A DNA stretch of 44,656 nt from IMG/VR virus record IMGVR_UViG_3300045988_024106. One strand, 5' to 3'. This stretch comes from a virus. Its lineage: Duplodnaviria; Heunggongvirae; Uroviricota; Caudoviricetes. Position 1 is the stretch's first letter; the number at the start of each line of letters is the position of its first letter. Positions 1 through 44,656 of the stretch are shown piece after piece. The notes beneath the pieces were generated by a model that was given only the letters and a program-made list of their open reading frames with translations, had not been told where the DNA came from and did not search any database. The position numbers and the translations under genes are program-made.

Positions 1-85
1 ACGGAAACCGACTTAGCGGAAGCAATTGAAAGCCTGGAGAAGTTACGGGAGTACCGAAGTAATATTGATGAGTAAGAAAAAAAAG
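1..85. repeat. 85-bp terminal duplication, identical to 44572-44656 (circular closure or terminal redundancy)
   Basis: Direct comparison of the first and last 85 nt of the window; contains the 3' end of the CDS that starts at 44416. Confidence 0.9.
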
Positions 86-6428: not shown

Positions 6429-6692
6429 CTATTCCAGAATATTCCGCACGTAATCCTGCAACATGAACACTTTCAGTCTCAGTTGCCGTACACATTCGGC
6501 GTTCCGAACGTCAATAGCCAAATCCTCGTCAGCGTCACTACTTGGCGGCGCCAGTTTGCACGGCGGCTGCATCATCGTCGTATCCGGGGATGGAATTGGC
6601 GTTTGCGACGGCGCGGGACTTGAGCAGGACGTGAGCATCATCGAAAGTGCACACGCTGCGGCCAGGCGTTCTAATGTACTTAACGACTTCAC
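6429..6692 (-). CDS. Rz1: o-spanin (Rz1-like outer-membrane lipoprotein)
   Basis: 87 aa; signal peptide ending in lipobox LTSC, Pro-rich mature part; GTG start with RBS GAGGTG; overlaps the 3' end of the Rz-like gene in another frame. Confidence 0.6.
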   Translation of the reverse strand: MKSLSTLERLAAACALSMMLTSCSSPAPSQTPIPSPDTTMMQPPCKLAPPSSDADEDLAIDVRNAECVRQLRLKVFMLQDYVRNILE

Positions 6693-6924
6693 GGGTAATC
6701 ACCTCTGATTTCGTCTTGCCTTCGTTGTCAGCAGCGGCTGCCTTTGATTCGTCCTGCTGCTGCCGTTGTGTTTTCTTCGCTAACTCGGCCTGCGCTTCTT
6801 GCTGTTGCTGTGAAACGAGATTCGCCCGGCCTTCGTTCCAGCCGCTGCGGTATTGAAAGTAGCCGTGTGCGTAAGCCAGGATGATGAAACATGCTCCAGC
6901 TACGACAGTTGCTTTAAGATTCAT
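6538..6924 (-). CDS. Rz: i-spanin (Rz-like)
   Basis: 128 aa; N-terminal transmembrane segment (KATVVAGACFIILAYAHGYF) then Gln/Glu-rich coiled coil; RBS AAGGAG; overlapping Rz1 partner. Confidence 0.65.
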   Translation of the reverse strand: MNLKATVVAGACFIILAYAHGYFQYRSGWNEGRANLVSQQQQEAQAELAKKTQRQQQDESKAAAADNEGKTKSEVITREVVKYIRTPGRSVCTFDDAHVLLKSRAVANANSIPGYDDDAAAVQTGAAK

Positions 6925-6940
6925 GTTTCTCCTTTCTCGA

Positions 6941-6968
6941 TAAGTAAAGCCCCGCCATAAAGCGGGGC
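6941..6968 (-). terminator. Terminator-like hairpin ~20 nt upstream of the Rz start (minus strand)
   Basis: gccccgc-cataaa-gcggggc (6949-6968); minus-strand tail TTTACTTAT; lies between element R1 and Rz. Confidence 0.45.
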
Positions 6969-7034
6969 GCTAGTCCTTATCATTTAAACATAGAAACGGC
7001 GTAATCTCAGTAAACCCGTTACTTTTTACACAAG

Positions 7035-7177
7035 CAATAGAGTATGGCCCTTCCGAACGCGTCAGCGTAACTACACTCAGGACTTACGTCCCGCTCCGCT
7101 ACCTGCCCGCGCCGCGGTCGCTTGTTCATACTTCACAAGCTCAGGTGGAGCTTAGCATATTTTCAGTGAAAAGTCAA
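7035..7177. repeat. Element R1: ~145-bp structured intergenic element, paralogous to R2 (20251-20395); candidate sRNA/regulatory element
   Basis: Alignment by eye to 20251-20395; core 7112-7160 differs from 20330-20378 by one base; contains hairpins gcttgt-N9-acaagc and aagctc-N5-gagctt. Confidence 0.6.
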
Positions 7178-7242
7178 CTATTCGAATAGTTTATTCCAAC
7201 ATTTACAATTCGGTGGAATAACTGGAATACGTAAATAAATAG

Positions 7243-7276
7243 TTTACAGACACCAACATAATAGGGTACCATTCGG
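7243..7276 (+). promoter_or_regulatory. Promoter/operator box (P-box) upstream of the mini-clamp gene
   Basis: tttacagacaccaacataatagggtaccattcgg; related to boxes at 9398, 42810, 18253(-), 20065(-); holds a TATAAT-like hexamer and an imperfect AATAG-N4-CTATT palindrome. Confidence 0.55.
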
Positions 7277-7299
7277 ATAACTTAAACAGGAGATGTAAA

Positions 7300-7821
7300 A
7301 TGGTTGCCACAGTAATTACTTTTCCCGCGTATGTAGGGGCGAAAATCTGCAGGGCTAAAAATGATGTACGCTACTATCTGAACGCTTTTTACATAGACCC
7401 GGAAGGATTGATAGTGTCTACGGACGGCCATAGATTGTTCTGCGACAATGTTAAGACAAACGTTGAGAATGGGGCTCTCATAGACATAAAAGGGAGAGAG
7501 CCTTCTAAATTTAACTACGCGGAAGTAGACCACGACAACGGCAGTGTATCTTTCTATGACGATAGTCGTGCGCTTATATGTACACTTCCGGTGGATGTTG
7601 TAGACGGAAAATTTCCTGACTGGCGACGTGTGGCGCACATCACGCCGGGGGCAGTTGATAGCATAGGATTTACCATGCCCTACTTGGCAGACGCGCACAA
7701 GATTTCTAAGGCATACAAAAATGAAATTGCTCGTTTCGATTTCCAGGACCAAACCAGAGGATGCAAAATATCGTTTTCAAACACTGCATTTATGGTGCTA
7801 ATGCCAGCGCGATTTAAATAA
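7300..7821 (+). CDS. Truncated beta-sliding-clamp (DnaN-like) protein, moron
   Basis: 173 aa; DVRYYLN...STDGHRL, VDGKFPDWRRV, IGFTMPYLAD and C-terminal MVLMPARFK match conserved E. coli DnaN domain II/III segments (from memory); RBS ACAGGAG; own promoter and terminator. Confidence 0.6.
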   Translation: MVATVITFPAYVGAKICRAKNDVRYYLNAFYIDPEGLIVSTDGHRLFCDNVKTNVENGALIDIKGREPSKFNYAEVDHDNGSVSFYDDSRALICTLPVDVVDGKFPDWRRVAHITPGAVDSIGFTMPYLADAHKISKAYKNEIARFDFQDQTRGCKISFSNTAFMVLMPARFK

Positions 7822-7827
7822 AACTAA

Positions 7828-7848
7828 GGCCCCTTAACGGGGCCTTTT
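7828..7848. terminator. Bidirectional rho-independent terminator
   Basis: ggcccc-ttaa(c)-ggggcc hairpin followed by TTTT; A-rich on the opposite side; between convergent CDS 7300..7821 (+) and 7850..8311 (-). Confidence 0.7.
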
Positions 7849-8311: not shown

Positions 8312-9411
8312 TAATCCCCTTTCAGATAATCAGCAACACGTTTATCGAGTTCCGCCATCTGCTTAAGCGTGAGCGGATTCCCGAAACCATCTACAGATAT
8401 TACGCGAAACTCTTCCGGCGATATACCGCTGTTACGGAAAATCTTACCGCGAACTGGCCCTAATGCTTCATCCTGAAACCACGCCGGTTGTTGTTTAAGG
8501 AACTCGTAATAGGTGGTGTCTGCACTTACCTGAGTACCGCCGTCCGCACCCTTAGCCGCGCGTTTTGCGCCTTTATCGAGGAAGTCGAACTCAGAACTGA
8601 TTACAGGCGCGGTGGTGCTTCGGCAATTAGGATGCGCGGGTGGCATCGGCCCTTTACCAATTTCCCACGTCATTCCGTCTCTGGCCCTGCAAATCGTGCT
8701 GGTGCGGCTGTCCAGCGTTGACACCCACTCGTATTTCTCGATGATGTCGTCGTTCCGGCGATACGTCTCGTTACGGGCTTCATTGGATACGTGAGACAGC
8801 GCGGTGCGGATTACGGTAGCCGCGTTACGTTCAGAGATGTCAGCCAGTCCGCCAGCGCCTACGACATTCTTAACAATCTGTCGTGTTGTCTGACCTTGTA
8901 CGAACCCCATCTTAACGCCCGTTACAAGACGGGCGACTTCGGTTTCACCCCAGCCATCCATCAGCTTAGTGAAGTCGACAGGCTTGTCGCTCAGTGAGAG
9001 CGGTTGAAACTCAGCAGCGGCCCACACCTGTTCAGCGGTGGGTGTAACGAATTCTGCGTTAACGTTGGTGGCTAGTGTCTTTACGTTCCACTCAGCCTCA
9101 TACGCTGCCAGCTCCTTAAGGTCTTCTGTCAGCTTTGTTCGCCAGTCGCCTGTAAGTCCGGTTAGTGCTTCTTCAATGTCGCGTAACAGTTTATTCAGTC
9201 GCGCAGTGCTACGCCCGTCGTCACCGAATAGCAGCACCTGCCGTTTGATTTCATCTCGCATTTCCTGGATAAACGGAGCGAGGTCTTTCACTTCACCGGA
9301 TGCGGTGCGTTGCAGCCAAATCTGGTGGCTGATTAGGGATGTAAGTAAGCTCATAGGCCCTCCTGTGGTATCGCCAGTGTAACGCATAAAAATAATATTT
9401 GCAGACACCAA
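8311..9411 (-). CDS. Head morphogenesis protein (Mu F / SPP1 gp7-like minor head protein)
   Basis: 366 aa; STLDSRTSTICRARDGMTW resembles the Phage_Mu_F family; located just downstream of the portal gene. Confidence 0.7.
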   Translation of the reverse strand: MVSANIIFMRYTGDTTGGPMSLLTSLISHQIWLQRTASGEVKDLAPFIQEMRDEIKRQVLLFGDDGRSTARLNKLLRDIEEALTGLTGDWRTKLTEDLKELAAYEAEWNVKTLATNVNAEFVTPTAEQVWAAAEFQPLSLSDKPVDFTKLMDGWGETEVARLVTGVKMGFVQGQTTRQIVKNVVGAGGLADISERNAATVIRTALSHVSNEARNETYRRNDDIIEKYEWVSTLDSRTSTICRARDGMTWEIGKGPMPPAHPNCRSTTAPVISSEFDFLDKGAKRAAKGADGGTQVSADTTYYEFLKQQPAWFQDEALGPVRGKIFRNSGISPEEFRVISVDGFGNPLTLKQMAELDKRVADYLKGD

Positions 9412-9431
9412 TATAATAGGGTACTATTCAG
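9398..9431 (+). promoter_or_regulatory. Promoter/operator box (P-box)
   Basis: tttgcagacaccaatataatagggtactattcag; exact TATAAT at 9412-9417 and palindrome AATAG-ggta-CTATT at 9415-9428. Confidence 0.6.
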
Positions 9432-9455
9432 TTATTGAAACGAGGATATAAAGAA

Positions 9456-13894: not shown

Positions 13895-14131
13895 TTAATC
13901 TTCCATACTTAGTAACACGTAACCAGGGAGGTACGCAGATACGTCCGCAACATGAATAACACGACGGTAAACAATACGACCTGTGTACTCACCGTTTTTG
14001 TATTCTCTCAGACACAAAGTATCATCCACTTTAAAGTTACGGTCGTTTAATCTCAGTTCCGCCAGTTTAAGGCCCGCCAGAACAGGCTCAAAATGCTCAG
14101 GTAATATCTTTAATTCATGGAACATACTCAC
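13895..14131 (-). CDS. ASCH (PUA-like) domain protein
   Basis: 78 aa; N-terminal pattern LKILPEHFEPVLAGLKLAELRLNDRNFKVDDTL resembles ASCH/DUF3850 domains. Confidence 0.45.
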   Translation of the reverse strand: MSMFHELKILPEHFEPVLAGLKLAELRLNDRNFKVDDTLCLREYKNGEYTGRIVYRRVIHVADVSAYLPGYVLLSMED

Positions 14132-19667: not shown

Positions 19668-19852
19668 CTACGGCAACCTCCCTCAGAGTCGTCGGCACGA
19701 GCATCATGATTCGATGCCGTTCTGGATTTAAATTCTGCGTTGAAACCTAACTTTGTTAAGGCGCAGCAATGGTCGAATGCTTCGCTTCTGCTTCTTGTTG
19801 AGTAACTAAATCTTCCACCTACATATACGTCGTAAATTAATTCTTCCATCAC
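19664..19852 (-). CDS. Hypothetical protein
   Basis: 62-aa ORF with stop/start overlap to the upstream gene. Confidence 0.4.
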   Translation of the reverse strand: MMEELIYDVYVGGRFSYSTRSRSEAFDHCCALTKLGFNAEFKSRTASNHDARADDSEGGCRR

Positions 19853-20043
19853 TTCACCCCTTTGAATTTAAAATTGTTGCCGATGAGTGTTAAATTATCT
19901 CGTAAGGCGTAACCATGTTTCTTTCGTACAAGACCCCATACGTCTACAGCGATACTATATTCATCTTCGTCCTGGGTAACTATCACGTACTGTCCGCAGC
20001 GTTTCGTTTTCACCAACTGACCCTTCTTAAACATAACCCTCAC
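19849..20043 (-). CDS. Hypothetical protein (first gene of the leftward early unit)
   Basis: 64-aa ORF; RBS GAGGAG; downstream of P-box 20065-20098. Confidence 0.45.
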   Translation of the reverse strand: MRVMFKKGQLVKTKRCGQYVIVTQDEDEYSIAVDVWGLVRKKHGYALRDNLTLIGNNFKFKGVK

Positions 20044-20064: not shown

Positions 20065-20098
20065 GTGAATAGTATCCTATTATGTTGGGGTGTGCAAG
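20065..20098 (-). promoter_or_regulatory. Promoter/operator box (P-box), leftward early promoter
   Basis: Reverse complement cttgcacaccccaacataataggatactattcac; palindrome AATAG-tatc-CTATT. Confidence 0.6.
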
Positions 20099-20164
20099 AG
20101 ATTAGTTACGTTGCCGTTGTGATTCTTTCGTGTAATAGGATAGCGAGCGAAACGAAACGAACGT

Positions 20165-20196
20165 GGTGCCGAAGGCACCAAGAGTGAGTGAGTGAG
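20165..20196. other. GC hairpin (ggtgcc-gaa-ggcacc) followed by (GAGT)n microrepeat
   Basis: Hairpin 20165-20179 and gagtgagtgagtgag 20182-20196; on the minus strand the hairpin is followed by a moderately T-rich tail. Confidence 0.4.
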
Positions 20197-20250
20197 CTTG
20201 CGGTTCTGACCTACGGCAAATCAGTAACTTATATACTTAGGCGGGAATTA

Positions 20251-20395
20251 CAATAGACTATGGCCCTTCCGAATGCGCCAGCGAGACTCACTCCACACGT
20301 CGAGACGTGCTCGTTTCGCCTGCCGCGCACCGCGGTCGCTTGTTCATACTTCACAAGCTCAGGTCGAGCTTAGCATATTTCTTAGTAAAAGTCAA
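20251..20395. repeat. Element R2: ~145-bp structured intergenic element, paralogous to R1 (7035-7177); candidate sRNA/regulatory element
   Basis: Alignment by eye to R1; nearly identical core 20330-20378; the upstream half has a different hairpin (cacgtc-ga-gacgtg) at the position of R1's ggac-ttac-gtcc. Confidence 0.6.
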
Positions 20396-23610: not shown

Positions 23611-23677
23611 TGAATAGTACCATATTAATTATTTTAGGAAAGCCCATTGACATCATGAATAGTTAGCTATTATAGTT
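23611..23677. promoter_or_regulatory. Divergent control region with two operator palindromes and a TTGACA -35
   Basis: tgaatagtaccatatta (23611-23627) and tgaatagttagctattatagtt (23656-23677); TTGACA at 23647-23652; lies between the XRE gene and gene 23709. Confidence 0.55.
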
Positions 23678-26481: not shown

Positions 26482-26714
26482 TTCGTAAAATGTTCAGAGT
26501 AATTGGCGGTTTTGTGGCGTTTTTAAGCTATCACTTTATGATGTTGCCGGTTTATTCTTTGCTTTTTCCATTAATGGCTTATATTGCGGTTAAGTATAAA
26601 ACTGTAGACCTGGAAGACTTAATGGAAGTTAATGAGATAAAGTTTGTTCAGAATTTGGAGTGGCCTTTCGAATACGTACTGATAGTTGAGAAAATAACTG
26701 GCTGGAAGGGTTGA
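26478..26714 (+). CDS. Small membrane protein
   Basis: 78 aa from ATG at 26478 (RBS AGGAGG); hydrophobic segments FVAFLSYHFMMLPVYSLLFPLMAYIAV. Confidence 0.4.
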   Translation: MIRKMFRVIGGFVAFLSYHFMMLPVYSLLFPLMAYIAVKYKTVDLEDLMEVNEIKFVQNLEWPFEYVLIVEKITGWKG

Positions 26715-26739
26715 CACCTGAATAGTTAGCTATTATAGT
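26710..26739 (+). promoter_or_regulatory. Promoter with operator palindrome (TTGACA + tgaatagttagctattatagtt)
   Basis: TTGACA at 26710-26715; the 22-nt block 26718-26739 is identical to 23656-23677; followed by a short hairpin (26751-26766) and the DUF2815 gene. Confidence 0.55.
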
Positions 26740-26793
26740 TCTAATCACTGGCCGGGCAGCTTCCCGGAGTAAACTTAAAAGCGAGAAATCACG

Positions 26794-30225: not shown

Positions 30226-30506
30226 CTAAAGAGGGCCGCGTACAGAAATACGCAAAAGAGAGGTTCGAGGCCCTGGGCGGCCTCGTTCGTAAACTTTCCT
30301 ATGAGGGGCGCTCCGGCGCTCCCGACCTGCTGGTAATTCTCCCCGGGGGCATCGTCTGGTTCGTCGAGGTTAAGAAAGATGAAAACACGAAGCCGGACCC
30401 CCACCAGTTACGCGAGCACGAGCGGATGCGTAAACGCGGTGCGAATGTTTTTGTCGTCGGTTCGTACAAACAGGTTGACGACCTAATAGCGAACTATTAT
30501 AGTTAG
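30207..30506 (+). CDS. VRR-NUC domain nuclease
   Basis: 99 aa; GAPDLLVILPGGIVWFVEVKK carries the PD-(D/E)XK-like D...E.K core typical of VRR-NUC; start uncertain (TTG at 30207 or GTG at 30222). Confidence 0.6.
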   Translation: MDSAVVTKEGRVQKYAKERFEALGGLVRKLSYEGRSGAPDLLVILPGGIVWFVEVKKDENTKPDPHQLREHERMRKRGANVFVVGSYKQVDDLIANYYS

Positions 30507-35743: not shown

Positions 35744-38290
35744 TTAATTAAAACCATTGCTGAATCCGTCGGAGAAACCGCGGCCTAAAGGTGCGACGCC
35801 GTCGTATTTATAGAATCCGTCGTCATAGTTGTAGCCAGTAATCTTGACCGTGCGGTCATCGCCCGGGTCTATTGAAGAAACAACTATCTTCTGAGCATTA
35901 TGCCTTGCTTCGTTGCCGAATGAAAACTCAGTTTTTAGCGCGCTATTCCCCGTGTAGATTGCCTCCTCCGGCGCGGAGAGCATAACCACTTCGCGGTCAT
36001 GACTTCCTTTGATAACGGAGATACTCTGTACGGAGCCGTCGCGCTTCTTAAGAATGATGGAGTGGTCGTCTCCGGGGGTAAACGTAACAGGCTGGGACAA
36101 TGTCAGTGTAAGCCCATTAACGGCAACAACATAACCATCTTGCGGCGCAATGCGAGAGCCTTTAACAACGCTGATTACCCCGCCGGGGGTGGCGAGCGCA
36201 CCTTCTTCCGTAGCTTCAAACTCTACGACAACTTTACTTAACGTGTTGCGCTGGTAGCGGCGCCACGCCAGCCAGTACGCCTGCTGGTAGTTGCGCACCC
36301 CCTTCGATTCGTACTCCTCGGTGTTTGCGCCGAGTTCTTCCGGGATATAAATCGTTTCCTGTACGTTAGTATCAGGGTCAATGTACGAGAACGACAGGCT
36401 ATCGTAGGTTGTCGAATCGTTGAACGTGCGGGTCCATTTCTCTGTACCAGTTGTCTTACTGCGGTGGGTGAATACCATTTCAGGCCCCGCGACAGGACGG
36501 TCGAATCGCAGCATAATATCCGCGCCTTTACGGTACGCAGTACAGAACACGGCTTCCGCTATGGTCTGAACGATGTCCTGCATCGTGGTGTCGTAGTCGT
36601 CGAACGTGTAGCAGAACTGCCCCGCTAATTCACTTCCGAAATAGGACTCGATTTCTTCCTGCACGGATAGTAACTTATCCATGTTTGCCGTTGTCAGTTC
36701 CAGATTACCCACCGCCGGGTCGCGCGCCAGCCTGATTAGCGACTGCACGGCCTGAGTGTTTGGTGTCATTACCGTATCGAATACCCCATTGCCTAAGTAT
36801 TTGTGGCACATCTCGGTCGCGATCATGCGCAGTTCAGGGTTATTGATACTGGCAGCGCGCGGCGTCTGTTTACGGGCACAATGTACGGTAGTTCGGTTGC
36901 CGTAGTGTGGGGTTGTGTCCAGTGACTGCCCGTACAGGTTGATGAAGGTTATCTCGTCACTTACCGTCCCGTCGTAGTCCTTGTCGAAATTCGTTACGCG
37001 GCGCATGCGGGCACGGAAACGAGACGCTGTCGGCAATTGGCCATAGATAGACGTACCGACGTAATCCGTATTGTTGCCTGTAATTGTAGCCTGTACCGTG
37101 TAAATATCGCCCAACGGGTTACGCTGAGAGTCAATCATCTGATACTGGAGTTCTACGGTTACGCTGGTACGGTTATAGCCGCCGTCGTATTTGTAGAGGC
37201 CGTTCTGCCCGGCAACGTTAGCAAGTACCCGGTCAACTTCTCCGCGTACCATGTAATACCAGTCCGTAAGAGATACGTCATATGTGTTGCTCGGGCCGAT
37301 AAACGTATCTGAACGCTCTGTTAGCGTGTACGTCTGTCCGCTGGTCAACGCGGCCCAGTTAGACGCACCGTTTACGGCTAATCTTACTTCGAAGTCGTCA
37401 ACGTATAAAACCTCAAACGAGCCGTTCAGGTTAGTGACATCAGCAACGTCAAAGTTGCTCAGCACCGCCACATCACCGACGCTAAGAAACTCAGAAAAAG
37501 CAGAGTCTCCTGACGGGTCATAGATGTAGCCGGTGTTTGAAATACGTTTAGCGGTGCCGTCGGCGCTTGGGTTGGCCCCGATGTCGTTCGGCGCTTTCAG
37601 TACAATACCGTCAACGTCGTCGTTGGAGTACGTCACATAGAGTTTCTGGTCAATGATGTCGCCGATTTGTAGTTGCGGGGTAGTTGTATTGTTTGGTGAT
37701 GTATAGGGGGTGTACACGGCAACAGAAGAACCTGTGATGTCGCTTATCAGGGTGTCGCCTTCCGTGACGCCATCAGCCTCAATATGCAGATGCCCGCGAC
37801 CAGCGTCATAGTACGAATACTCCAGCAAAGCACCAGTGGAGTTGAACGCCTTGTACGTCTGCATAAGGTCGTTAGGGATTGTCTGCACAGTCCCGCATAT
37901 GTCATAAGAGCGCTCGTAAGGACGCGGCTTGTTGGAGCGGTCTGTTAGGCTGTTATTAGCGGATTTTGCTTGGTTATTTGTCGCTGTTACCGCCAGACTC
38001 GGTTTCTTAGTTAGTAAAACCGTAGCCGCAACGACGACCAAAGCAACAAGCGCACCTACTACAAGCGCACCTCCACCAGCTCCTTCTACTATGTGATACA
38101 CCGCGTCTTCGTCTTTAAGCGCGTCGAAGTCGTCAGTGATATCGGTGTCGTCACCAATCTCACCGAGATATACGCGCACAGGAACGCCGTCAGGGATATG
38201 GTTAACAACAAACTCCATTGGCATCCCGACGTGTTTTGTACGGTCGAAAACACCGTTAGCATTTCGCGTGTAGTGCAGGATTATCGCCAA
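35744..38290 (-). CDS. Tail tip / host-specificity protein (lambda gpI-like N-terminus fused to gpJ-like body)
   Basis: 848 aa downstream of the K-like gene; N-terminal ~100 aa with a hydrophobic segment (GGGALVVGALVALVVVAATVLL); position equivalent to lambda I-J. Confidence 0.55.
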   Translation of the reverse strand: MAIILHYTRNANGVFDRTKHVGMPMEFVVNHIPDGVPVRVYLGEIGDDTDITDDFDALKDEDAVYHIVEGAGGGALVVGALVALVVVAATVLLTKKPSLAVTATNNQAKSANNSLTDRSNKPRPYERSYDICGTVQTIPNDLMQTYKAFNSTGALLEYSYYDAGRGHLHIEADGVTEGDTLISDITGSSVAVYTPYTSPNNTTTPQLQIGDIIDQKLYVTYSNDDVDGIVLKAPNDIGANPSADGTAKRISNTGYIYDPSGDSAFSEFLSVGDVAVLSNFDVADVTNLNGSFEVLYVDDFEVRLAVNGASNWAALTSGQTYTLTERSDTFIGPSNTYDVSLTDWYYMVRGEVDRVLANVAGQNGLYKYDGGYNRTSVTVELQYQMIDSQRNPLGDIYTVQATITGNNTDYVGTSIYGQLPTASRFRARMRRVTNFDKDYDGTVSDEITFINLYGQSLDTTPHYGNRTTVHCARKQTPRAASINNPELRMIATEMCHKYLGNGVFDTVMTPNTQAVQSLIRLARDPAVGNLELTTANMDKLLSVQEEIESYFGSELAGQFCYTFDDYDTTMQDIVQTIAEAVFCTAYRKGADIMLRFDRPVAGPEMVFTHRSKTTGTEKWTRTFNDSTTYDSLSFSYIDPDTNVQETIYIPEELGANTEEYESKGVRNYQQAYWLAWRRYQRNTLSKVVVEFEATEEGALATPGGVISVVKGSRIAPQDGYVVAVNGLTLTLSQPVTFTPGDDHSIILKKRDGSVQSISVIKGSHDREVVMLSAPEEAIYTGNSALKTEFSFGNEARHNAQKIVVSSIDPGDDRTVKITGYNYDDGFYKYDGVAPLGRGFSDGFSNGFN

Positions 38291-42702: not shown

Positions 42703-42809
42703 TCTTTAATCCTTTGGTTAAGAGGTTACGGGTTAATGGTAAATGCGCCAGACGGGAACCACCCGCTTTTCGTGTGCGACACTAGGCGCAAAATTATTCT
42801 ATCACATTA

Positions 42810-42843
42810 CTTGCAGACCCCAATATAATAGGGTACTATTCAC
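42810..42843 (+). promoter_or_regulatory. Promoter/operator box (P-box) for the moron island
   Basis: cttgcagaccccaatataatagggtactattcac; TATAAT plus palindrome AATAG-ggta-CTATT; upstream of the Imm-like gene. Confidence 0.6.
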
Positions 42844-42869
42844 TTACACCATCAATGAAGGGGTTTAAA

Positions 42870-44426: not shown

Positions 44427-44646
44427 ATACAACCGCACAATGACAAACACTCACGGCAGCACTATGACAGTAGACGTTTATGACGTGCTACGTGCTTTCG
44501 ACATCCGCGACCCGGCGTTACAGCACGCATTGAAGAAGCTATTGTGTATGGGCCTTCGCGGGCACAAAGATACGGAAACCGACTTAGCGGAAGCAATTGA
44601 AAGCCTGGAGAAGTTACGGGAGTACCGAAGTAATATTGATGAGTAA
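44416..44646 (+). CDS. Hypothetical protein (runs into the terminal duplication)
   Basis: 76-aa ORF (GTG at 44416; alternative ATG at 44440); 3' end lies in the 85-bp repeat and is followed by terminator 76-108. Confidence 0.4.
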   Translation: MTNKYNRTMTNTHGSTMTVDVYDVLRAFDIRDPALQHALKKLLCMGLRGHKDTETDLAEAIESLEKLREYRSNIDE

Positions 44647-44656
44647 GAAAAAAAAG
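44572..44656. repeat. 85-bp terminal duplication (copy of 1-85)
   Basis: Exact identity with window positions 1-85. Confidence 0.9.

Follow-up and report, generated by a model that had tools for sequence, protein, structure and literature searches.

The phage DNA sequence IMGVR_UViG_3300045988_024106 (IMG/VR; Caudoviricetes; 44,656 nt, analysed at full length and referred to here as the window) carries two intergenic direct repeats, R1 (7035-7177) and R2 (20251-20395), which are read on the minus strand. Comparison with related phages reveals that this element is a new covariation-supported RNA family that is fused to its own promoter and is not in Rfam. Each repeat is, with high probability, a module composed of a host sigma-70 extended -10 promoter and a structured 5′ leader RNA. 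Judged from its sequence setting, the module probably has control of late-gene transcription as its putative role.

The repeat pair and its predicted promoter

A global alignment of R1 and R2 gives 123 identities in 150 columns (82%), in good agreement with the initial annotation of the window, which had described direct repeats of about four-fifths identity by eye. The ~50-nt core with one difference that it reported also holds on exact recount, the core (7112-7160 versus 20330-20378) being 49 nt in length with a single difference, G/C at 7147/20365. A 47-nt core pattern, allowed up to three mismatches, occurs twice in the window and is absent from 100 dinucleotide shuffles (0 occurrences). 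The similarity stops sharply at both edges, as the 40 nt beyond each edge agree at 13/40 and 6/40 positions, which is the random level. The idea that R1 is unusually conserved with respect to its neighbours was considered and rejected; its rate of change is about that of the flanking genes, at 93% to nearer relatives and ~77-81% to Jerseyvirus.

On the minus strand, the conserved block opens exactly at a -35 hexamer, TTGACT, which is followed by a 17-nt spacer and the extended -10 element TGcTAAGCT (Table 1). The earlier suggestion that the minus-strand TTGACT at 7177-7172 and 20395-20390 could serve as a -35 is therefore borne out, in that the hexamer belongs to a well-formed promoter. Genuine copies of the element, gathered from metagenomes, IMG/VR and GenBank phages, number 113; in every one of them (113/113) the spacer measures exactly 17 nt, positions -15/-14 hold TG and the -10 reads TA[A/C]GCT, and the third base of TGn may be C, A, G or T. 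The -35 is TTGACT in 98/113 copies and TAGACT, TAGATT or TCGACT in the other 15, with hexamers other than TTGACT in 14/15 Jerseyvirus-type copies and 2/98 Kagunavirus-type copies. The rest of the spacer and the stretch from the -10 to the first hairpin vary freely. Such a fixed frame of -35, 17 nt, TG and -10 within an otherwise free sequence is what a functional sigma-70 promoter should show. A promoter is annotated at the same spot by the authors of the phage phi135 genome record, and a simple consensus scan misses it because TAAGCT agrees with TATAAT at only three positions. The start sites at ~7142 (R1) and ~20360 (R2) were placed by the usual 7-nt distance to the -10.

Fold and covariation of the predicted leader RNA

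The predicted transcript begins with a 5′ hairpin A, continues into a 65-nt irregular long-range hairpin (helices P1, P2 and P3) and ends in an 18-nt conserved tail, with ~110 nt folded in total. RNAalifold on 21 copies (MAFFT-based alignment) yields hairpin A (7140-7120) together with a long-range hairpin that joins the core to the far end of the repeat. When 28 distinct core variants were folded singly, 28/28 adopted the same architecture at -28 to -38 kcal/mol, with P1 (CCG, a bulged C and GGNGCG paired with CGCNUUCGG), P2, an internal loop and an apical P3. The initial annotation had placed two adjacent hairpins in the core; both palindromes, gcttgt/acaagc and aagctc/gagctt, exist where they had been located, but the covariation lies in the 65-nt long-range hairpin. 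The second of them, aagctc-aggtg-gagctt, is not supported as a hairpin of this RNA, as it overlaps the -10 (TAAGCT, 7154-7149) and the predicted start and would lie mostly outside the transcript.

A covariance model built on the proposed structure recovered 77 copies in the first 76 sources, with 77/77 on the strand of the promoter and at most two per genome, and a further 39 clear matches in metagenome loci along with one borderline hit that is without the promoter. Standard pairs occupy 90.7% of cells in the proposed structure, compared with 19-42% when the partners are slid by 1-3 columns; the alignment behind these counts was fitted to the covariance model and favours the structure, and the single-sequence folds and the MAFFT-based RNAalifold agree with it independently. 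The covariation score is 0.203 versus 0.092 in shuffles, with 0/500 shuffles reaching the observed value. Changes on both sides are seen at seven pairs, and compensatory changes are present in every helix. At one P1 pair, 20 distinct sequences have C-G, 16 have U-A and 4 have A-U; P2 shows U-A to G-C or A-U changes and a CGCG/CGCG replacement in Jerseyvirus; hairpin A shows U-A to U-G changes and has another stem, ACGCU/AGCGU, in Jerseyvirus. The most extensive replacement is found in P3. In the divergent half of the repeats, hairpins of different sequence had been noted at the same position (ggac-ttac-gtcc in R1, cacgtc..gacgtg in R2) and taken as a hint of structure-preserving change; both are present, and they correspond to the apical helix P3, for which at least seven stem sequences are found among relatives (GGGAC/GUCC, CGGAC/GUCCG, CACGU/ACGUG, GUGCC/GGCAC, GUGC/GCAC, GGGCGC/GCGCCC and GGGCGU/ACGCCC). 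The apical loop of P3 is freely variable (GUAA, GUUAA, AUUA, CUCG, CACA and others).

The invariant residues are concentrated in the basal part of the long hairpin and the 18 nt that follow, and the internal loop also retains conserved residues (G.A.C opposite GAGYGUAG), whereas hairpin A is the least conserved part. Folding the whole ~210-nt leader as a single sequence gives no significant stability (z -1.1 to -1.4); the comparative analysis alone is informative. A pseudoknot between the loop of hairpin A (AGUAUG) and the tail (CAUACU) was tried and rejected, as the key tail position is C, G, A or U without a matching change and the pairing is missing in type-c variants and in Jerseyvirus.

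Strand, coding potential and RNA family searches

Folding of the sense strand gives a mean of -31.1 kcal/mol as compared with -23.2 for the antisense, an advantage of ~8 kcal/mol, and the sense strand is ahead in 28/28 variants. Two pairs in P1 are invariant G-U pairs, and several one-sided changes lead to G-U or U-G, all of which hold in the sense reading only. As G-U pairs become A-C mismatches on the other strand, these pairs and the folding advantage of the sense strand point to a minus-strand RNA and not to a DNA cruciform or a protein-binding palindrome. The minus-strand reading adopted at the outset is thus supported by the promoter, the G-U pairs and the folding energies alike, whereas structured regulatory DNA, which had been offered as an alternative to a small RNA, is disfavoured by invariant G-U pairs and one-sided changes to G-U that fit the minus-sense strand only.

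No open reading frame (ORF) is shared by the copies: among 46 distinct copies the overlapping ORFs vary in frame, start, stop and strand, as had already been remarked for R1 and R2, and one variant is without any sense-strand ORF across the element. Near-identical R1 copies differ by 1-nt insertions and deletions. Several records carry small 'hypothetical protein' genes across the element (L001 6095-6205, L042 1513-1671, L075 720-827, L156 474-593); being on differing strands and frames, these are probably spurious annotations.

The Rfam scan proposed with the initial annotation matched no family: Rfam 15 at gathering thresholds gave 0 matches in the whole window, and permissive thresholds gave hits at chance level only (E >= 0.75), none of them on the element. 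Scans of the window for tRNA and tmRNA returned nothing. No copies were found in 5,426 Escherichia coli genomes, and a pattern scan of metagenomes found only more ~44-kb contigs of the same phages and promoterless false positives. An ops-like site for RfaH was rejected as coincidence; R1 of the window reads GGTAGCG, but most copies have GGTAACG and the R2 copies are wholly different.

Distribution and exchange between loci

R1 of the Kagunavirus type occupies the late locus in 181 GenBank records, and the Jerseyvirus type occupies the late locus in 268 records with the same promoter geometry and fold, blastn detecting it in the tail only. Together the two versions account for nearly all of ~446 Guernseyvirinae genomes that were detected by another probe. 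R1-bearing records number ~450 in all and come from E. coli and Salmonella phages, and R2 is an optional extra copy, found in the early control region of ~40 Kagunavirus records as at least five sequence types of 76-100% identity.

Two cases illustrate the mobility of the module. In phage K1G, the R2 position holds an ordinary promoter (TTGACA-16-TAAAAT), with the downstream hairpin and a second promoter-like repeat retained. Contig L030 (2182-2333) is a chimera in which R1 flanks enclose an R2-type core. The replacement and the chimera indicate that the module is an exchangeable promoter-leader cassette, which is obligatory at the late locus but can be missing from the early one. A divergent R2 copy in L024 (4364-4446) has two mismatches in P1 and, on its sequence, may be decaying. 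As a separate observation, the K1G leader (36684-36711, 36779-36805) contains a 27-nt segment that is the reverse complement of the R1-locus hairpin (window 6945-6972); evidently, intergenic cassettes undergo shuffling between loci and orientations.

Genomic setting and downstream hairpins

The first and last 85 nt of the window (1-85, 44572-44656) are identical, which implies a single, complete circular assembly, 44,571 bp in length. The genome is that of a Kagunavirus (Guernseyvirinae), with intergenic regions 93-99% identical to those of E. coli Kagunavirus phages and matches to many Salmonella relatives as well. Gene order was read off annotated relatives. On the minus strand from 20043 to 7850 lie small early ORFs, holins, endolysin, terminase, portal and head genes, and a bidirectional terminator is located at 7826-7846. 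R1 is positioned between a clamp-like gene (7300-7821, +) and the minus-strand spanin gene, after which the order on the minus strand is i-spanin, o-spanin, scaffold, major capsid, connector and tail-tube. R2 is positioned in a divergent control region between the small early ORFs (-) and a helix-turn-helix gene with replication genes (+).

Table 1. Positions of the R1 and R2 modules and of associated features in the window
Feature	Position	Strand	Basis or remark
R1 -35, TTGACT	7172..7177	-	first bases of the conserved block
R1 extended -10, TGc TAAGCT	7149..7157	-	17 nt after the -35; predicted start ~7142
R1 hairpin A, GCUUGU-GAAGUAUGA-ACAAGC	7120..7140	-	predicted RNA 5′ end; single folds, RNAalifold
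R1 long hairpin	7053..7117	-	28 minimum-free-energy folds, RNAalifold, covariance model, pair counts, strand asymmetry
R1 P1, CCG.GGCGCG / CGCGUUCGG	within 7053..7117	-	
R1 P2, CAGGUAAC / GUUACgCUG	within 7053..7117	-	
R1 internal loop, GGAG / AGUGUA	within 7053..7117	-	
R1 P3, CGGGAC-GUAA-GUCCUG	within 7053..7117	-	
R1 conserved tail, AAGGGCCAUAnUCUAUUG	7035..7052	-	single-stranded; 3′ end of the shared module
A+U-rich spacer (66 nt)	6969..7034	-	R1 locus only
Terminator-like hairpin, GCCCCGC-UUUAUG-GCGGGGC then UUUACUUAU	6940..6968	-	16 nt before the spanin ribosome-binding site
i-spanin gene	6538..6924	-	first gene downstream of R1; annotation of relatives
Perfect 14-bp palindrome, ACTATTCGAATAGT	7177..7190	.	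abuts the R1 -35; from the sequence; unrelated sequence at R2
R2 -35, TTGACT	20390..20395	-	sequence comparison
R2 extended -10, TGc TAAGCT	20367..20375	-	17-nt spacer; predicted start ~20360
R2 hairpin A	20338..20358	-	identical to that of R1
R2 long hairpin	20269..20335	-	same architecture; P1 pair U-A versus C-G in R1; P2 and P3 sequences differ
R2 conserved tail, AAGGGCCAUAGUCUAUUG	20251..20268	-	
R2-locus GC hairpin, UGGUGCC-UUC-GGCACCA	20164..20180	-	almost no U tract; bound to the locus, not part of the module
First small ORF of the minus-strand unit downstream of R2	19849..20043	-	CATAAT/AATAGG..CTATT-family repeat ahead at ~20065-20100

The homology of R1 and R2 stops at ...CUAUUG, ~65-70 nt ahead of either downstream hairpin. 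The GC hairpins that the initial annotation had linked to each copy are indeed present (6968-6949; 20180-20164), but they are bound to their loci and are not part of the repeat. Compensatory change maintains the hairpin at the R1 locus, the stem of which reads CCCUGC/GCAGGG in one Kagunavirus and CCCGGC/GCCGGG or CCCGAC/GUCGGG in Jerseyvirus. Upstream of R1, the preceding same-strand unit ends at a terminator, which in the window is the one at 7826-7846, with the clamp-like gene in between, and in Jerseyvirus stands ~60 nt upstream. No other good minus-strand promoter was found between the 7826-7846 terminator and the spanin gene, so that the capsid and tail operon appears to depend on the R1 promoter and on passage through the hairpin at 6968-6949. 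Strong terminators also lie inside the operon, at 4577-4556 and 101-82.

Inspection of three different downstream hairpins revealed no pairing of the tail with them that would act as an antiterminator, and a terminator/antiterminator riboswitch was rejected in the absence of any conserved alternative pairing with these three. A coupling of R2 to the internal terminator at 18554-18533 was likewise rejected: K1G is without both, but the terminator region is present in 446 records, many of which are R2-less.

Proposed function of the leader and alternative explanations

We tentatively propose, by analogy, that the leader is a cis-acting RNA that alters the polymerase transcribing it, in the manner of put of phage HK022. 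R1 would restart transcription past the terminator that closes the upstream unit and would head the spanin-capsid-tail operon, and R2 would be an optional paralogue at the divergent early control region. The nascent leader would fold on leaving RNA polymerase and act in cis on that same polymerase, and the modified elongation would then resist the terminator-like hairpin 85 nt downstream and, later, the internal terminators of the long operon. Both the start of transcription at the module and the action of the RNA on termination we infer from the anatomy of the sequence. Support for a polymerase-acting leader comes from the distribution of the invariant residues: an invariant hairpin base and tail with a free apical loop place the constraint on that part of the nascent RNA that is next to the polymerase exit channel. 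Furthermore, a module that has no terminator of its own and that exchanges its core between loci is indicative of a leader rather than a gene. It also counts in favour of an RNA-only action that Pfam recognised no antiterminator (Q, N or other) among 30 small or uncharacterised proteins, although most of these proteins match nothing at all and may include an unrecognised factor.

The relation of the promoter to hairpin A adds a possible layer of control. The -10 hexamer is off consensus alike in two lineages, as TAAGCT in Kagunavirus and TACGCT in Jerseyvirus, and in each an arm of hairpin A has the complementary sequence (AAGCUC/GAGCUU in Kagunavirus, 7149-7154 with 7137-7142; UACGCU/AGCGUA in Jerseyvirus, L041 ~1600-1620). 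As a feature of sequence, this complementarity could be an operator across the start site or an alternative pairing that is available only in read-in transcripts. In the latter case, the pairing could make read-in transcripts fold differently, such that only promoter-started transcripts would be licensed past the terminator.

Several observations weigh against a polymerase-modifying leader. Hairpin A is nearly lost in Jerseyvirus if the start is 7 nt after the -10, and the sole Kagunavirus RNA-seq paper reports genes only. Homology to put is absent, and the covariance model run on the whole HK022 genome with filters off gave a best E of ~4, outside PL/PR. K1G has a plain promoter instead of R2, which implies that this locus can do without the leader. 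The U tracts after the hairpins are imperfect, reading UUUACUUAU in the window and UUAGCGUAU in Jerseyvirus and being absent at the R2 locus; the leader would thus perhaps have little termination to overcome. Finally, the 18554-18533 terminator is common in phages without R2, and no coupling between leader and terminator was found.

The same anatomy may be read as an element of mRNA stability or processing, with either a 5′ hairpin that shields the transcript from 5′-end-dependent decay or an RNase III site of ~23 bp, a reading that we regard as unlikely. Hairpin A stands at the predicted 5′ end, and the long hairpin spans about two helical turns with an internal loop and ~23 pairs. T7 RNase III sites generally have this form, about two turns broken by an internal loop, and a portable cassette of promoter and 5′ stem is reminiscent of the stem-loops conserved at the 5′ ends of T7 late transcripts. 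A protective hairpin, however, would need no invariant bulge, internal loop or 18-nt tail, and the very part that would confer protection, hairpin A, is the one least conserved and nearly lost in Jerseyvirus. The elements are found at promoters only and never between genes, which is atypical for RNase III sites, and the helices are very G+C-rich, a composition that E. coli RNase III tends to disfavour.

Alternatively, the RNA could be inert on its own and serve as a nut-like recruitment site for a phage or host protein that modifies RNA polymerase or regulates the operon. The evidence of fold and placement is the same as for a polymerase-modifying leader, and the conserved internal-loop residues and tail resemble a recognition surface. 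Candidate partners are also at hand, as most small early proteins have no assigned function and the 78-aa product of 13895-14131 (-) carries a DUF3850 and ASCH-like domain (E 6e-19), the sole RNA-binding hint among the 30 proteins scanned; the ASCH-like fold has been proposed to bind RNA. Against this stand the failure to find any N, Q or other antiterminator family by Pfam among these 30 proteins, an apical loop that is freely variable, unlike the boxB loop that is read by N, and the lack of a boxA-like consensus, the tail being CUCUAUUG or CUAUAUUG versus GCUCUUUA. On these grounds a recruitment site seems quite improbable.

The initial annotation had suggested a candidate small RNA, with a minus-strand transcript of ~150-220 nt. 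A trans-acting RNA of ~200 nt that extends from the promoter to the downstream hairpin and base-pairs with mRNAs of host or phage, or sequesters a host protein, would account for the order of promoter, structured RNA and terminator-like hairpin (6968-6949), and the conserved single-stranded stretch could be its seed. The module nevertheless ends ~65-70 nt before either hairpin, the spacers and hairpins differ between R1 and R2, and K1G retains the R2-locus hairpin without R2. Complementary targets of the tail in the phage genome are at chance (5 versus 3.4 expected), and, with no other evident promoter for the late operon, read-through must occur. We therefore give little credence to a small RNA and prefer a promoter-plus-leader cassette to an autonomous small-RNA gene of 150-220 nt. 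Least probable is a role at the DNA level, as a transcription-primed replication origin (R2 lies at the cumulative GC-skew minimum) or as an operator AAGCTC-N5-GAGCTT across the start site (its arms, -11 to +6, are invariant in Kagunavirus copies with a variable spacer), since the skew minimum coincides with a switch in gene orientation and the universal copy R1 shows no inflection, the inverted repeat, which Jerseyvirus lacks, has its spacing shifted by 1 bp in one variant, and the G-U covariation and the 8 kcal/mol sense advantage point to RNA.

Other repeats and neighbouring features

The palindrome ACTATTCGAATAGT that abuts the -35 of R1 is a possible operator outside the shared module. 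It contains CTATT/AATAG half-sites, as do other promoter families, and the R tail, too, ends in CUAUUG. Near-consensus promoters (TTGACA, 17-18 nt, TATAGT) are present on the plus strand at 23646-23677, 26709-26740 and 30473-30504, and each encloses the palindrome AATAGTTAGCTATT. All three sit ahead of replication genes and agree with the 'phage promoter' consensus of fBC-Eco01 (PMC9825357); from their sequences, the AATAGTTAGCTATT promoters look like a second promoter class with a built-in operator. A third repeat family, (T/C)ATAAT followed by AGG(G/A)TAC(T/C)ATT (AATAG-N4-CTATT), is without a proper -35. Its site at 7241-7279 (+) precedes the clamp-like gene, that at 9396-9434 (+) a short ORF, that at 42808-42846 (+) a cluster of plus-strand genes and that at ~20065-20100 (-) the small ORF that comes first after R2.

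The clamp-like gene at 7300-7821 (+) encodes 173 aa and is labelled 'DNA polymerase III sliding clamp' in the records of relatives, with a Pfam match that is sub-threshold only (E 0.004; 17.7 bits versus a cut-off of 27). It is divergent from R1, is missing in K1G and Jerseyvirus and ends at the bidirectional terminator at 7826-7846; it is apparently an accessory gene, gained by insertion and equipped with a promoter-like repeat of its own. A plus-strand (GAGT)n microsatellite, (CUCA)n in the RNA sense, separates R2 from the hairpin downstream of it, at 20183-20197, and its copy number varies between phages (~3-4 in the window versus 7 in phage Golestan).

Comparison with known systems

To our knowledge, RNA-only control of polymerase processivity in enterobacteria is essentially confined to one case, HK022 put, to which a few Gram-positive elements may be added. 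The module could represent a second, independently evolved RNA-only device for terminator resistance on the RNA polymerase of E. coli and Salmonella, one that is built into a late promoter and spread subfamily-wide in virulent phages without recognisable Q or N, although we hold this broader proposal to be doubtful. If true, a second unrelated fold on the E. coli enzyme would reveal which properties are enough for a nascent RNA to reprogramme polymerase, and it would explain how the lysis and structural genes of Guernseyvirinae are switched on by host polymerase alone. Guernseyvirinae are being isolated widely with phage therapy in view, the targets being E. coli K1, uropathogenic E. coli and Salmonella. 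Whatever its function, the element provides a new covariation-supported RNA family suited to Rfam and a compact promoter-leader cassette that recombines between loci, and it flags spurious annotations of small proteins.

The resemblance to T7 RNase III sites and late 5′ stem-loops lies in repeated irregular hairpins of about two turns in a phage transcript leader. T7 sites are located between genes and genome-wide, whereas the present element is fused to one promoter type and has invariant unpaired residues and a tail. The antiterminator RNAs that act in cis other than put are EAR, conAn2 and canT (PMC11658703). Like EAR (Bacillus eps operon), conAn2 (pLS20) and canT (Tn916), which are thought to modify RNA polymerase (PMC11658703), the module is the leader of a long operon with internal terminators; those elements differ from it in sequence, in size (canT ~340-450 nt) and in their Gram-positive hosts, and the module has no Rfam match.

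With lambda nut, the module shares paired copies of an RNA signal downstream of two promoters, but it has no boxA (CGCUCUUA-like), no conserved GNRA-like apical pentaloop and no recognised N-like protein; a boxA in the tail was considered and rejected, as the motif is not conserved. The arrangement at R1 is closer to lambda PR'-qut-tR' ('6S'), with a constitutive-looking promoter (7177-7149), a leader of ~200 nt, a terminator (hairpin 6968-6949) and then lysis and structural genes (spanin start at 6924), an order that is not seen at R2. The lambda late leader, in contrast, has no conserved fold, and for it to be read through, the DNA-binding Q must act and a -10-like pause signal must be present early in the transcribed region. 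Pfam found no homologue of Q here, and the -10-like candidate for a pause, AAGTAT in the loop of hairpin A, is lost in type-c variants and in Jerseyvirus.

In HK022, two similar RNAs of ~70 nt lie just downstream of PL and PR, with putL pairing from position +3. Without any protein, put RNA acts on the polymerase that transcribed it: bound to the beta-prime zinc-binding domain, it keeps that polymerase from pausing and terminating over 10 kb or more (PMC9378689). R1 and R2 are comparable to putL and putR as two paralogous copies, each downstream of a sigma-70 promoter (predicted here). One put RNA begins a few nt from the start, and R1 and R2 both do so from their predicted starts; stem-loops with bulges and a long terminator-containing operon downstream are further points in common. 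In contrast, there is no homology to put in sequence or structure, as the leader of ~110 nt has a short hairpin, a very long hairpin and a tail versus two similar stems in ~72 nt, and it belongs to the late operon of virulent Guernseyvirinae, whereas put serves the early operons of a temperate lambdoid phage. By analogy, the element would work most like HK022 put or a lambdoid late leader, but it belongs to neither family.

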